Shown here: piece after piece, positions 7,238 through 16,515 of the stretch
Position numbering within the stretch: position 1 is the first letter of the stretch
How the letters are laid out: each line of letters starts with the position of its first letter
DNA from: Escherichia coli 042
GTDB taxonomy: Bacteria; Pseudomonadota; Gammaproteobacteria; Enterobacterales; Enterobacteriaceae
Length of the DNA: 64,000 bases
Reading direction: 5' to 3' (one strand)
Assembly (NCBI RefSeq): GCF_000027125.1
Contig: NC_017626.1
The notes under the pieces: model-generated
What the model saw: only the letters and a program-made list of their open reading frames with translations
The model's database searches: none
Told to the model about the DNA's origin: nothing
Made by a program: the position numbers and the translations under genes

Positions 7238-8014
7238 TCACCAGTCAAAACTTTTCACCAGCGTCAGCTCGCCAGCATTACGCATCGGTACAATAAATGT
7301 TTCCTGTTTCTCATTGACCGATCCTTCATCGGTGATCAGCGTCAGTTGGGCGGTCGTCAATTCCGTTTCGCTGCGTCCGCCATAGTAGTTGATATACACC
7401 TGATAACGTCCGTGAATCGGCGCTGGCATGGCGAAAATCTCGGGGCCGTACCCCGTCGTGACATCCATATCCAGTGCACCACTGTTTTTCAGCACGGTGT
7501 TACCGTACCAGGCGTGTTCGCCATCAGGTGTAACAACGTGAAGGTCGAGGTCGGTATTGTCCGTATCCCAGGAGAGAACCAGCCGTAAACGCGCGCGGAT
7601 CACTCCAGCGCCCGGCGTTGAGTAAAACTGCATTTTTTGTCGGCTTTGCCCATCTGGGCTGATGACCTGCACGCTGTTGCTGCCTTCAGTGAAAATATAA
7701 GGGCGTGCAAATGAACCATCGGATTCAATTCTCTGCGGCATACTGGCACCGTTGACCACCAGCCGGCCCTGCTGAACTTTACCCGCCGCAGCACAATTCT
7801 TTATTTTGCCGCGGATCTGCGCTGAGATATTTTGATCATCTGCCATGTTGACGGACGACGCCGGGTAATTGATCGATTGTGAAAAACTGGCATCTTCGCC
7901 CTCTGCCGGATGCCAGCCAGAGAGCGGTGCATCAATCTCGACTTCCTGCACACCTTCGCCATGGGCAACAGGCGAAAGCGCCACCAGTAACAACGGAAGA
8001 AAAATCTTTCGCAT
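7238..8014 (-). CDS. yfaP: YfaP (DUF2135 family), last gene of yfaA-yfaP operon
   Basis: 258-aa ORF with signal peptide, tight operon context. Confidence 0.85.
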   Translation of the reverse strand: MRKIFLPLLLVALSPVAHGEGVQEVEIDAPLSGWHPAEGEDASFSQSINYPASSVNMADDQNISAQIRGKIKNCAAAGKVQQGRLVVNGASMPQRIESDGSFARPYIFTEGSNSVQVISPDGQSRQKMQFYSTPGAGVIRARLRLVLSWDTDNTDLDLHVVTPDGEHAWYGNTVLKNSGALDMDVTTGYGPEIFAMPAPIHGRYQVYINYYGGRSETELTTAQLTLITDEGSVNEKQETFIVPMRNAGELTLVKSFDW

Positions 8015-8018
8015 AGCA

Positions 8019-9668
8019 TTAGTCCATTAATAATTGTCGAGTCAGCGTTTCGATATAGTTCTCATCAAGCCCGGTGGGATAACCATCAAAGGCCAGGTGC
8101 AGATACTCATGGGTTAAATCCAGCCGATCCTGAAGCGTAAAGAAGTTACGAATAAACAGCCGTTTCTGCTGCCGATCGGTATAGGGGAAACCTGAGACTA
8201 AACGACAGACCGCAAACACGTCTGGTTCGTTGTACCCCGTCTCGCCTTGTAACATACGCCGCCACTGCGACATTTTTTTCGCCAGCCAGGCTTTCGCTTT
8301 GGGTAATAACTGGCAGGTTGAGCGCGGCGCTCCCCAGCGGCTAAGGCTATTGTCGGGATAAGCAAACGCGAGTATCTGATCGTAACGCTCTCCCTGCCCC
8401 GCCTGGGCCGTGGCTTGCCGCCAGGAAAGCGTCCCTTCGGTAGCGCGACTGCCATGATAATGAACCGGATCGCCCGCATAGATAAGATCCTGCGTCCAGG
8501 CGGTCATCGTTCGCGCCCCCGTGGTAGCTGGCGAAGCAGAAACACGTTGCGTGGCGCTACTGTCGGGGATGGTCAGGCAATCGCCTTCCCGATTGGCGTT
8601 TTGCTGTAAAAAAGTGCGAATCGCCACGGTCATGGCTTTCGCTGCCTCAGGGGGCGTACTTTTCGCCTCGCGATCCAGAACTCTGGCAACGTACTCTTCA
8701 CGATCGAGATGCGACTGCAATTTCAGTTTGCCCTTTTCGCTCAGTAAGGTCGTCTCACCGTGGCTGACAAACGTAATGTGGTTACCATTGGCAAACGTCA
8801 CACGATAGCGCCCATTAAGTACGCCGGGTTTTACTGCCGTCGAACTCTTCTCCGCCGTGATTTTCTTCAGCGGATAGCGGGCAAACAGCTCCACCAGGAC
8901 ACATTGCCCACTGGCAACTTGCGTCGGCACTGGCAAAACCCGATTAAGCACCGTCGCATAACGGGTCAGTACCGTTTTGCTGGTGCCGCTGCCAGTCACC
9001 CACAGCGGTGTACCATCGGTTAACCAGCCAGCAAAACCACCCTGACGGATTTCCTGCTTATCATCGGCAAACCAGCTCCAGGTTTTCACCCGTACCCGGC
9101 TACCGAGCATGGATGCAACTCCGATTTTCGTCTCGTCCAGCACCACATCCAGTAAGACTTCCTGAGCTTTGTTTTGCGCGGGTAACGTCGCTAATGAATC
9201 AAGCAGTGATTTAACCGTTACCGAGGTTTCTGGCTTCAGCGTAGTAAGAGACGCTAACCACGCAGGTGCCTGACGCTGTTGCCAGTATTGCCCCCATACA
9301 TCTGCGCCAATATGCAACCGCTGCGGCGCAAAATAGAGCCCACAGGAACGTACCAGCGCGGTATCGCGCGTTATGCTCTCCCCAGCCTGACAACAATAAA
9401 CCTCTTCCGGGGAGTTTCCGCGACACTGGTAGGGCTGCTCCGGTTGATGGGTATCCTCCAGCCAGGCGTAAACATACAGTTTCCACAAACTCCCTAACGG
9501 CGTGGTGAGTGTGTCAGGTAATGCCGAGACTTTGGTCACGCCTGATGACGACAGCTGATACAGTTGATCGTGCTGCGCGCCCCGCAGCGCCAGTTGTAAC
9601 GGCGTCTCCTCCGCAAGCGTTGGCAGAGTAACCAACGCCAATAGCCAGACGATTCTGCGCCAGTTCAC
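8019..9668 (-). CDS. yfaQ: YfaQ (DUF2300 family)
   Basis: 549-aa ORF with signal peptide; start abuts yfaS stop. Confidence 0.85.
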   Translation of the reverse strand: MNWRRIVWLLALVTLPTLAEETPLQLALRGAQHDQLYQLSSSGVTKVSALPDTLTTPLGSLWKLYVYAWLEDTHQPEQPYQCRGNSPEEVYCCQAGESITRDTALVRSCGLYFAPQRLHIGADVWGQYWQQRQAPAWLASLTTLKPETSVTVKSLLDSLATLPAQNKAQEVLLDVVLDETKIGVASMLGSRVRVKTWSWFADDKQEIRQGGFAGWLTDGTPLWVTGSGTSKTVLTRYATVLNRVLPVPTQVASGQCVLVELFARYPLKKITAEKSSTAVKPGVLNGRYRVTFANGNHITFVSHGETTLLSEKGKLKLQSHLDREEYVARVLDREAKSTPPEAAKAMTVAIRTFLQQNANREGDCLTIPDSSATQRVSASPATTGARTMTAWTQDLIYAGDPVHYHGSRATEGTLSWRQATAQAGQGERYDQILAFAYPDNSLSRWGAPRSTCQLLPKAKAWLAKKMSQWRRMLQGETGYNEPDVFAVCRLVSGFPYTDRQQKRLFIRNFFTLQDRLDLTHEYLHLAFDGYPTGLDENYIETLTRQLLMD

Positions 9669-14288: not shown

Positions 14289-14830
14289 GTCATAAGTTGT
14301 TGCAGACTGACTGCGCGCATTCCGTTGTCAGTTTTCGTGGCGCTTCCGGTGTGGTAGATGACGTAACGCCCCATCCAGACCATTAAGTGCTGGGCATCGC
14401 CCTGATCGAAAAAAATCATATCGCCAGGCAGCGCCTGGTTTATGTCCTGGCCAATAAACTGGCTGTTGTACTGAATCAAATTAATCGCGGTCACGTAGGG
14501 GCCGGTTTTCCCGTTCCCCTGATTCCAGTTTTGCGCCAGTTGACGCTGTTCAGGTGTTAGCGTCATTTCAGGCGGCAAATACTGACTTGCTATACCGTTA
14601 CTTTTTAGCCATTTGCTGTCGTGAATTTTCAGCGCCTCGTTCGCCGAAAATCGCACCAGGCCCGCACAATCCTGCTGATACCAGCGTGGGCTTGGCCCCT
14701 GGCGGAGTTGTTCCTGTGCAATGCGTACAAACCACGCGCGAAACAGCCCCGACTGTTCGACATTCAGCATTTCGCTATGGGCAACAACACAACACAGCCA
14801 GCAAATCAGCGCCAGCAGCCCGTGCCTCAT
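14207..14830 (-). CDS. yfaT: YfaT (DUF1175 family)
   Basis: Start set at internal Met giving 207 aa and an ATGA overlap with the yfaA stop; 3' end overlaps the longest yfaS ORF. Confidence 0.8.
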
Positions 14831-16515
14831 AGCGGCTGCCAGGTTATGGGTAGCCACTGCCAGGCGGCACCGGGTTCCATCTGGGCCAGCTTCATGACAT
14901 AACGCGGTTGTTGAGATAAAGCGTCCAGCTTCGGCATTAATAAAGTTTGTGCGGCGTTATAAAAAACCGGTTCGAGATTCTTCGGCAGACTGGTCAACGT
15001 TTCGTTACGCAGCAGTTTCGCCACGCCTTGTGGATTGATATAGAGCGGAACGATGCCATCAGTGGGTATTACATCCACCATTGCCGGGCGGGTTTTATTC
15101 AGTGTTTGCAGGGCGTTATTAACCAGCGTGTCATCGAGGGAGAAAAGCAGCGTTTTGTTTTGCATCGCCAGCGACACGCGGAAAAAATAATCCGACATTA
15201 ATTGATCTGGTTGCGCCGCCTGCGCTTTCGGATACTGGCCGTATCGGGAACTCACTTCGCGACGCCAGATTTGCGCTTCGCCCTGCTGAGTCTGGCTTAC
15301 CGGCAAAACACCTTCTGGCGCTTTGCTTTCGTGCGCACCAATATTTTGCGTAAACAGTTTCCCAGGCAGTTGTGCCTGTTCGGCTGAGCCATCAAATTGA
15401 CCAACAAATAGCGGGGTTTGTAATTTTGAGTCTTCATACCAGCACAGCCCGGCGGCACCATCTAACGCCCCGTTCAGCTTGTCGTTTTCCTGGCTGATGT
15501 GCGAAAGCATCTCTTCGGCAATACCATGCGAATACGGCACCGCCACACAGAAGCTGGCCCCAGCAGGCATACTGTTCCATACCGGCGTAAAATCGAAACT
15601 GGCATCTACGCTTGCGGATTCATCATTTAACGCCACAAAACTGTGCCAGCCGTCGTTACCCATTTCGAAGCGTACGCCAGCAAAAGAAGGCATTAACCGC
15701 TGGTAGCCAAAACCCAGCAACCTGGCGCTGGCCACGATGCGCTGGCGTACTGGCGTTTTTTCGGCAGTACGCTCTTCCAGGCCAAAGCTGGCTTGCCAGC
15801 GTTTTTTGCCGCTCAACAAATCACTTGCGATCGCCGTGGCTTCGGTATCCTGCTGATCATCTTTAAACAGCATATCCGTGCTGGAAAACACCAGCATCTT
15901 GTCCTGATATGTCGTGAACATCAGGGCGTTATTGCCGTTATAGCGCAACTGATAAACCGGGATGGTTTCACTATTTAGCTTAATACTACTGATTTCCGTT
16001 TTGCTTAACTGGCTGTCGCTGGTAGCGGCAAACAACAATGGCTCCAGCAGTTTGCTTAAACCACTGCGCTGGATCAGCACCATGTAATGTGAAAGATGGC
16101 CTTGTTTATCGTGCCATAGCGCCGCCTGTGCGGGCTGATCTAAGAGTGACGAAAAGAGCTTATCTTTCAGCGTGAGATCGTGTTCATAGACAATGCGGCG
16201 AATGCTGCCTTCAATGCCCAGACGATCGGCATGATTCTGATAATAGAAAACGAAATCTTCACTCAGAACATCGTGGAGAAACGGAATGGTAAGGAGGTCT
16301 TTGGGAAGCTGGCTCAGAGAGTCGCTGTCGAGAAAGAGGTCCGGCTCATTGAGATCGATTTGCAGATTGTTGTGCACCACCAGCGGCGACAACGTTTTTT
16401 CTGGCCCACTGCCAGCATATTGCAACGCCCAGACGCCAGCGGAAAGCAGTACTATTGCGCCCAAACATACAAGACCATAGAACCGCCAGCCTTTCGCCTT
16501 TTTTTCACCACTCAT
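14827..16515 (-). CDS. yfaA: YfaA (DUF2138 family), first gene of operon
   Basis: 562 aa from Met15 of the 576-aa ORF; N-terminal membrane anchor. Confidence 0.8.

Follow-up and report, generated by a model that had tools for sequence, protein, structure and literature searches.

The intact yfa operon of Escherichia coli 042, probably the five-gene enterobacterial form of the Pseudomonas aeruginosa mag macroglobulin operon

The window analysed here is a stretch of 64,000 nucleotides (nt) from contig NC_017626.1 of Escherichia coli 042 (assembly GCF_000027125.1; positions are counted from its first letter), and its minus strand carries, from 7238 to 16515, the operon yfaA-yfaT-yfaS-yfaQ-yfaP, whose central gene encodes a protein of the alpha-2-macroglobulin (A2M) family. 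The list of open reading frames and our own translation agree on five consecutive, co-directional frames without internal stop codons, as had been claimed in an earlier reading of the letters alone (hereafter the sequence-only reading). The operon is flanked by atoB on the plus strand, ending at 7164, and by gyrA on the minus strand, ending at 16664. The genes are listed below with their counterparts in the magABCDEF operon of Pseudomonas aeruginosa; yfaS appears twice because two start codons have to be told apart.

16515-14827, minus strand: yfaA, 562 amino acids; MagB homologue, DUF2138 protein with a single N-terminal hydrophobic helix, predicted inner-membrane anchor
14830-14207, minus strand: yfaT, 207 amino acids; MagC homologue, DUF1175 / NlpC-P60-like, periplasmic, with signal peptide
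14288-9669, minus strand: yfaS as the longest open reading frame, 1539 codons
9669..14273, minus strand: yfaS from the ATG at 14273, 1534 amino acids; MagD homologue, alpha-2-macroglobulin family
9668-8019, minus strand: yfaQ, 549 amino acids, GTG start, with signal peptide; MagE homologue
8014-7238, minus strand: yfaP, 258 amino acids, with signal peptide; MagF homologue, DUF2135 / YfaP_C

The genes are tightly packed. At the yfaA/yfaT junction the yfaT ATG lies over the yfaA TGA in a shared ATGA (4-nt overlap), the TAA of yfaS is followed with zero gap by the GTG of yfaQ, and 4 nt (TGCT) separate the TAA of yfaQ from the ATG of yfaP; all three junctions are as the sequence-only reading gave them. 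The translational coupling that it derived from them is compatible with such compact junctions, which do not by themselves prove it. At the remaining junction, yfaS overlaps yfaT by 67 nt if translation starts at the ATG at 14273 and by 82 nt if it starts at the ATG at 14288. The lengths of yfaA, yfaT, yfaQ and yfaP are identical to those in the K-12 annotation, and the 4.6-kb open frame of yfaS is far beyond chance expectation. A megablast search with positions 7000-17000 gave matches in 5425 of 5426 complete E. coli genomes, the comparison set used throughout, and the matched genomes carry the annotations yfaP, yfaQ, "alpha-2-macroglobulin family protein", yfaT and yfaA. The region is the ordinary, intact yfaA-yfaT-yfaS-yfaQ-yfaP operon of E. 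coli, already known and annotated.

YfaA matches Pfam DUF2138 (E = 3e-287) and the NCBIfam equivalog PRK11410, and is 48-50% identical to the product of the gene at the MagB position in Pseudomonas operons. Its residues ~12-32 are hydrophobic and in its AlphaFold2 (AF2) model a helix (10-34) precedes a folded domain, so that YfaA is predicted to be a MagB-type partner with a single transmembrane (TM) helix and a candidate inner-membrane anchor. YfaT matches Pfam DUF1175 (E = 4e-58) and, weakly, NLPC_P60, and a phmmer search aligned its residues 21-206 with the crystal structure of MagC (PDB 7BK8, E = 9e-103); the family description of DUF1175 is that of a catalytically inactive, peptidoglycan-binding NlpC/P60 fold. 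YfaQ matches DUF2300 in two stretches (E = 2e-89) and SpoIID at 27 bits (cut-off 23), and is 52-53% identical to the products of genes at the Pseudomonas MagE position. YfaP, with Pfam DUF2135, is 56% identical to the product of the last gene of the Pseudomonas operons (MagF position) and 43% identical to that of the first (MagA position); being closer to the last, yfaP corresponds to magF, and magA is the missing gene. Sequence searches of the PDB found no relative of YfaA, YfaQ or YfaP and no close relative of YfaS, and thus no Mag-type A2M structure appears to have been solved.

YfaS itself has the Pfam domains MG2 (E = 8e-25), A2M_BRD (8e-18), A2M (9e-13) and bMG10 (2e-6), all above the gathering score, and shares 54-57% identity with homologues from Pseudomonas, Serratia and Yersinia (56% with the A2Ms of the Pseudomonas operons). 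The sequence-only reading had described it as a full-length alpha-2-macroglobulin homologue without the CxEQ thioester motif, and both the Pfam content and an alignment with ECAM (YfhM), one of the checks that it had proposed, bear this out: no C.EQ occurs anywhere in the YfaS translation, and no conserved thioester cysteine came to light. In a ten-sequence MAFFT alignment and in pairwise BLASTP, the PYGCLEQT of ECAM (C1187) stands opposite PWGGVINT in YfaS, within a conserved context P-[YWF]-G-x-x-x-x-T, and all three chemically relevant residues are replaced (C by G, E by I, Q by N). YfaS has cysteines only at positions 30 and 1194 (1539-codon numbering); a hidden thioester at Cys1194 was considered and rejected, this residue being neither aligned with C1187 of ECAM nor conserved. 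The two sites of YfaS that matter most for a macroglobulin are:

11058..11069, minus strand: thioester-equivalent site G1069-V-I-N1072, in place of C-x-E-Q
11658..11798, minus strand: bait region, ~ residues 826-872, between Pfam A2M_BRD and A2M and mostly within a disordered segment of the model

The AF2 model of YfaS covers residues 335-1534 and was built on a 40-sequence alignment with moderate confidence (mean pLDDT 75, pTM 0.55). It consists of MG beta-sandwiches, all-beta outside the TED region, with a C-terminal MG10 and a helical TED-like domain at ~1051-1314 (model residues 717-980), where the ECAM TED residues align and where GVIN lies at the start of the first long helix. Foldseek placed the model closest to native ECAM (5A42, E = 2.4e-47, TMq 0.51), and Salmonella A2M (4U48, 2.5e-45, and 4U4J), followed after the bacterial A2Ms by complement C5, A2ML1, TEP1 and CD109; TM-scores were 0.51-0.53 with native conformations as opposed to 0.32-0.39 with activated ones. 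Residues 805-868 (model residues 471-534) are disordered (pLDDT < 50) and include TNRSERR at 851-857, of which NRSER is shared with the bait of P. aeruginosa MagD, ANRSERG (amino acids 847-853); from the model, this segment is predicted to be the exposed, flexible bait region of the A2M superfamily. Few parts of the family are as conserved as the bait, at 0.80-0.87 identity per 25-residue bin across genera.

The N-terminus of YfaS depends on the choice among three in-frame starts, and the predicted signal peptide on that choice:

ATG at 14288, minus strand: 1539 amino acids; no Shine-Dalgarno sequence; start chosen in the sequence-only reading
ATG at 14273, minus strand: 1534 amino acids; AAGGA 6 nt upstream; start in the K-12 and E. 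albertii annotations
GTG at 14183, minus strand: 1504 amino acids; RefSeq/PGAP choice; no signal peptide
14160..14273, minus strand: predicted Sec signal peptide of YfaS, 38 residues, MDTQRF...GTGLANA / DDSLPSSNY, as read from the sequence

Among the in-frame starts, only the two ATG codons yield a signal peptide, the first 67 nt of whose coding sequence (from 14273) lie within the 3' end of yfaT. An A-x-A type cleavage site and a mature N-terminus of the form [DE][DG]x[LV]P.S.Y are kept across genera in the alignment, from which the position of the YfaS cleavage site is inferred. In Pseudomonas and Yersinia the A2M gene starts at an ATG overlapping the MagC stop codon; E. coli has no usable start at the yfaT stop, and initiation is therefore most likely at 14273. 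With the GTG at 14183 the protein would lose its only possible signal peptide, and this start is probably an error of the RefSeq/PGAP annotation. The claim of an uninterrupted 1539-codon yfaS thus holds as to the absence of interruption, while the figure of 1539 counts from the most upstream ATG and gives way to 1534 amino acids with the likely start.

Two alternatives at this end of the protein were considered. An open frame reading "MEGHPMDT[QR]R" (window 14207-14290) precedes the A2M start in Pseudomonas, Serratia, Yersinia and Superficieibacter (loci L004 and L006-L009, described below) and might be taken for a genuine conserved N-terminus; it was rejected as such because its conservation is that of the MagC/YfaT C-terminus, of which it is the image in another frame. 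Gene callers sometimes begin the A2M gene in this frame; in Serratia, for instance, where they do so, a better signal peptide results from an internal Met. The second alternative, that YfaS is a lipoprotein, arises from an I-A-A-C within the signal peptide of E. coli and E. albertii. It seems unlikely: the Cys is confined to Escherichia, being absent from the Serratia, Yersinia and Pseudomonas homologues, and since the conserved A-x-A / D/E-D/G site follows it, cleavage by signal peptidase I is more likely.

In K-12 MG1655, yfaS (b4500) is annotated as a pseudogene. The sequence-only reading gave it as a frameshifted pseudogene, which was right as to the pseudogene and wrong as to the frameshift, since 4620 nt of yfaS align between the window and K-12 with zero gaps and the sole lesion is a nonsense change, TGA in frame in place of TGG:

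10170..10172, minus strand: Trp codon TGG, W1368 in the 1534 numbering and codon 1373 in the 1539 numbering; TGA in K-12

The exact K-12 61-mer bearing this stop codon occurs in 364 of the 5426 genomes, and the carriers among the 12 records listed are all K-12-type laboratory strains, for example MG1655, C600, J53 and ER1709. DNA of yfaS is found in 5383 of the genomes (at query coverage of at least 80% in 5362), and the protein cluster of intact-length YfaS has 40,950 members. Between the window and K-12, the ratio of nonsynonymous to synonymous divergence (dN/dS) is 0.06-0.11 for all five genes, with 0.12 for neighbouring atoB, and no positive selection was seen on the bait or elsewhere in yfaS, where dN/dS is at most 0.15 per 200-codon block. 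All five genes are under purifying selection and, given the counts of yfaS DNA, the 40,950-member cluster and the rarity of the K-12 61-mer, the intact operon is the normal state in E. coli. The locus is a conserved core-genome operon and the K-12 stop codon a lineage-specific accident; the significance that had been implied for an intact yfaS falls away, the intact form being the population norm.

These data bear directly on the possibility that E. coli retains the operon only as a cryptic or decaying remnant, unexpressed or non-functional, and that its intactness here is incidental. Such decay would be consistent with a K-12 nonsense mutation of no known phenotype, with the many deletions, duplications and truncations among E. 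coli yfaS entries (999, 959 and 1362 amino acids), with the loss of all three thioester-motif residues, and with an atypical yfaS start and no consensus promoter found. However, yfaS DNA at 80% coverage or more in nearly every genome and dN/dS values in all five genes like that of atoB are not what a remnant would leave, the variant clusters are small beside that of the intact protein, and the K-12 61-mer is restricted to its 364 genomes, with K-12-type derivatives among those listed. We regard decay as highly unlikely.

In-frame internal deletions or duplications are present in many E. coli entries (P0001-P0059), including forms of 999 and 959 amino acids without residues ~431-912 on tens of contigs, a form of 1362 amino acids in O157:H7, and duplications of 1604-1614 amino acids; these length variants are either real alleles or artefacts of assembly or annotation. 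Codons 401-600 (window ~12470-13070) are very divergent from K-12, with a dS of 0.43 and a dN/dS of 0.07, compared with a dS of ~0.08-0.19 in most other blocks and 0.23 in the adjacent block 601-800. This looks like an old, divergent allele segment acquired by recombination, and not like positive selection.

The Mag/Yfa macroglobulin family has reportedly been described since 2004. MagD of P. aeruginosa is an A2M of the periplasm, associated with the inner membrane, that has neither CXEQ nor any cysteine and binds MagA, MagB and MagF 1:1 (PMC3735191, PMC5764988). MagB, with one predicted TM helix, anchors and stabilises the MagD complex and is required for the in vivo cleavage of MagD from 165 to 100 kDa, and MagA and MagF are paralogues (COG4676) (PMC3735191, PMC5764988). 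MagD with a TEV site in place of its bait ANRSERG is cleaved and keeps TEV non-covalently, and trypsin, chymotrypsin and papain cut in the bait of MagD (PMC5764988). A2Ms of "Type II" have been described simply as lacking the thioester (PMC3735191, PMC5764988). The statement of the sequence-only reading that the function of the cluster is uncharacterised is accordingly true of the E. coli genes but not of the orthologous P. aeruginosa complex, which has been studied biochemically (PMC3735191, PMC5764988) and of which MagC has been solved (7BK8).

The yfa operon resembles magABCDEF (PA4492-PA4487) in its correspondences MagB/YfaA, MagC/YfaT, MagD/YfaS, MagE/YfaQ and MagF/YfaP, which run in the same order, in an A2M without the thioester Cys, in a MagB-like protein with a single predicted N-terminal TM helix, in signal peptides on the remaining four proteins, and in the NRSER bait motif. 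Homologues in Pseudomonas spp. are 48-71% identical to the E. coli proteins, and YfaT matches MagC itself at the E-value given above; the identities were taken with other Pseudomonas species, the MagD sequence of P. aeruginosa PAO1 not being among the retrieved matches. The two systems differ at the thioester-equivalent site, which is GVIN in E. coli and CVEQ or GVEQ in the sampled Pseudomonas members of the family, in the overlap of the macroglobulin gene with its upstream neighbour (4 nt between MagC and the A2M in Pseudomonas, as opposed to a yfaS start 67 nt inside yfaT), and in chromosomal context, which in E. coli is atoB/gyrA. The A2Ms of P. citronellolis, P. knackmussii and P. alcaligenes belong to the same family (~55% identity) and the same operon type (L004), yet have an apparently intact PYGCVEQT and a sixth gene at the MagA position.

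The second system to which YfaS can be compared comprises ECAM/YfhM and the Salmonella Sa-A2M ("Type I"; 5A42, 4ZIQ, 4RTD, 4U48). These proteins share with YfaS the multi-MG fold, a bait before MG7, a TED-like domain and MG10, and they are the best structural matches to its model (Foldseek E = 2e-47 to 2e-39), whereas sequence identity is only ~16-22%. CLEQ and a lipobox Cys are present in ECAM, whose gene adjoins pbpC (PBP1c) in K-12; YfaS has GVIN and no conserved lipobox, is ~120 residues shorter than ECAM/Sa-A2M, and is encoded in the five-gene yfa operon, between yfaT and yfaQ and not beside pbpC.

Taken with the Pfam content and gene order shared with Pseudomonas, the match of YfaT to 7BK8, the identity and fold of YfaS, its NRSER bait, the alignment of GVIN with CLEQ, the conservation of the genes and their dN/dS, these comparisons indicate that the locus is probably the enterobacterial counterpart, with five genes and no magA, of the "Type II" macroglobulin operon magABCDEF of P. 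aeruginosa. Several points weigh against this. E. coli lacks the magA paralogue (COG4676/YfaP_C), which is part of the Pseudomonas complex: the gap between gyrA and yfaA is 148 nt, and no YfaP_C-type gene lies upstream. The YfaS signal peptide hinges on a start of unusual position, 67 nt within yfaT, and the start annotated in RefSeq would leave the protein cytoplasmic. A scan of the gyrA-yfaA intergenic region found no sigma-70 consensus promoter, and a search of the available literature found no experimental evidence on the E. coli proteins. The in vitro trapping by MagD, on which the functional comparison draws, used an engineered TEV bait and was incomplete, and a highly conserved, non-variable bait is more in keeping with a dedicated substrate than with a broad-spectrum trap.

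Five operons from other genera served to compare the anatomy of the locus, listed here with the motif at the thioester site of their A2M:

P. citronellolis, L004: six genes, YfaP_C, DUF2138, MagC, A2M, DUF2300, YfaP_C; CVEQ; neighbourhood as in L009
P. nitroreducens, L009: six genes in the order of L004; GVEQ; neighbourhood as in L004
Serratia, L006: five genes, without the leading YfaP_C; GVIN; context unlike the others
Yersinia, L007: five genes, without the leading YfaP_C; GVIN; context unlike the others
Superficieibacter, L008: five genes, without the leading YfaP_C; GVVN; context unlike the others

The window has the five-gene enterobacterial layout, with gene order and Pfam content as in L004 and L006-L009 and pairwise identities of 43-80%. 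The E. coli proteins YfaS, YfaA, YfaQ and YfaP are 48-56% identical to those of Pseudomonas and 52-64% identical to those of Serratia and Yersinia; such near-equal identities, together with the unrelated enterobacterial contexts, hint at horizontal transfer or unusual rates. Among full-length family matches, the thioester site was distributed as follows:

CVEQ: 31 clusters, Pseudomonas, for example P. citronellolis, P. knackmussii and P. alcaligenes
GVEQ: 20 clusters, Pseudomonas, for example P. nitroreducens
SVEQ: 1 cluster, in the Pseudomonas clade, metagenome sequence P0114
GVIN or GVVN: 18 clusters, all Enterobacterales

In a neighbour-joining tree of the top 120 clusters, rooted on ECAM and computed without support values, the Enterobacterales formed one clade and at least three GVEQ groups were scattered among the CVEQ lineages of Pseudomonas. 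Judged by these motifs, the Mag-type family is not uniformly thioester-less, E. coli shows its most degenerate state, and the Cys appears to have been lost several times within Pseudomonas.

How the E. coli proteins might act together can be proposed by analogy, each step being drawn from the Pseudomonas Mag work. YfaS would be exported to the periplasm and held at the inner membrane by the MagB-like YfaA through its single TM helix, and the MagF-like YfaP would bind it; YfaT, MagC-like with a peptidoglycan-binding NlpC/P60 fold, and YfaQ (SpoIID/DUF2300) may serve as accessory or maturation factors. A protease entering the periplasm would cut the bait (~TNRSERR, 851-857), and the resulting conformational change of YfaS would trap it non-covalently.

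A Mag-like envelope complex could also have a main job other than the inhibition of foreign proteases. In that case it would be a module for peptidoglycan or envelope surveillance or maturation, in which YfaS acts as scaffold or as substrate, a specific protease, perhaps an endogenous one, cleaves it at the bait, and YfaT and YfaQ connect it with the cell wall. Peptidoglycan-related folds in two of the five proteins (YfaT is NlpC/P60-like, and MagC binds peptidoglycan; YfaQ matches SpoIID) would be consistent with such a role, as would a bait that ranks with the best-conserved stretches of the family, in contrast to the variable baits of A2Ms with a broad spectrum. In every isolate tested, moreover, MagD undergoes MagB-dependent cleavage in vivo from 165 to 100 kDa (PMC3735191, PMC5764988), and the absence of the thioester Cys from at least three separate GVEQ groups of Pseudomonas suggests repeated loss. 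Nevertheless, MagD traps TEV once the bait has been cleaved, the bait being open to trypsin, chymotrypsin and papain (PMC5764988), the modelled fold of YfaS is nearer to the native, spring-loaded A2M (TM-score 0.51-0.53) than to the activated one (0.32-0.39), and DUF1175, the family of YfaT, is classed as catalytically inactive. A role in surveillance or maturation is, on balance, rather unlikely, and a Mag-type macroglobulin operon is our preferred reading of the locus.

The ends of the operon carry the following signals:

7177..7198, no strand assigned: GC-rich hairpin between the convergent atoB and yfaP, from the plus-strand terminator scan; on the minus strand the hairpin is followed by TGTTTTTATTG
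16516..16663, minus strand: gyrA-yfaA intergenic region, with two hairpins after gyrA and then ~70 nt to yfaA

By its match to the consensus, the hairpin at 7177..7198 is likely to be a bidirectional terminator. In the gyrA-yfaA intergenic region, the scan marked one terminator-like site, at 16644-16627.

Over the wider window, strain Ecol_316 is matched at essentially 100% identity from ~22.5 kb, a point inside yfaL, as far as 47.8 kb, while the ato-yfa-gyrA-ubiG-yfaL part (4700-22500) is 98.2% identical to it, with patches down to 94.8%; the best match of the yfa region in the 5426 genomes is strain MEI003, at 98.8%. The window is a mosaic, which suggests recombination tracts. Between yfaV and yfaY, in an interval that is 100% identical in the window (~43108-44750), Ecol_316 is annotated with a partial tnpA and an InsQ/TnpB gene of IS200/IS605 type, and its annotation of the inaA-glpQ interval (window ~28.6-32.6 kb) has an extra MFS transporter, a LysR regulator and a frameshifted open reading frame. 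The only Rfam match in the window is naRNA4 (RF02564), at 26999-27069 on the minus strand between nrdA and nrdB, with 82 bits (gathering 59.5).

Beyond the operon as already known, the analysis adds two things: the start of yfaS in RefSeq is probably misplaced, and the Mag-type family is mixed as to the thioester. The 1504-residue RefSeq version probably misplaces the start in tens of thousands of entries; the cluster at 90% identity has 40,950 members. K-12 is a poor model for the Mag-type complex of E. coli because its yfaS has a stop codon, and natural isolates are the better choice for work on it. The division into Type I with a thioester and Type II without one fails inside the Mag-type family. 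One tentative and doubtful scenario is that the Mag/Yfa macroglobulins were ancestrally thioester-bearing and lost the thioester repeatedly; YfaS would then be the end state of a passage from covalent to purely mechanical trapping, with an unusually conserved, arginine-rich bait (NRSERR..RPRRE) tuned to one class of protease, endogenous or delivered by competitors, and not to the proteases of the host at large. The natural series CVEQ, GVEQ and GVIN offers test material for macroglobulin trapping without covalent chemistry.

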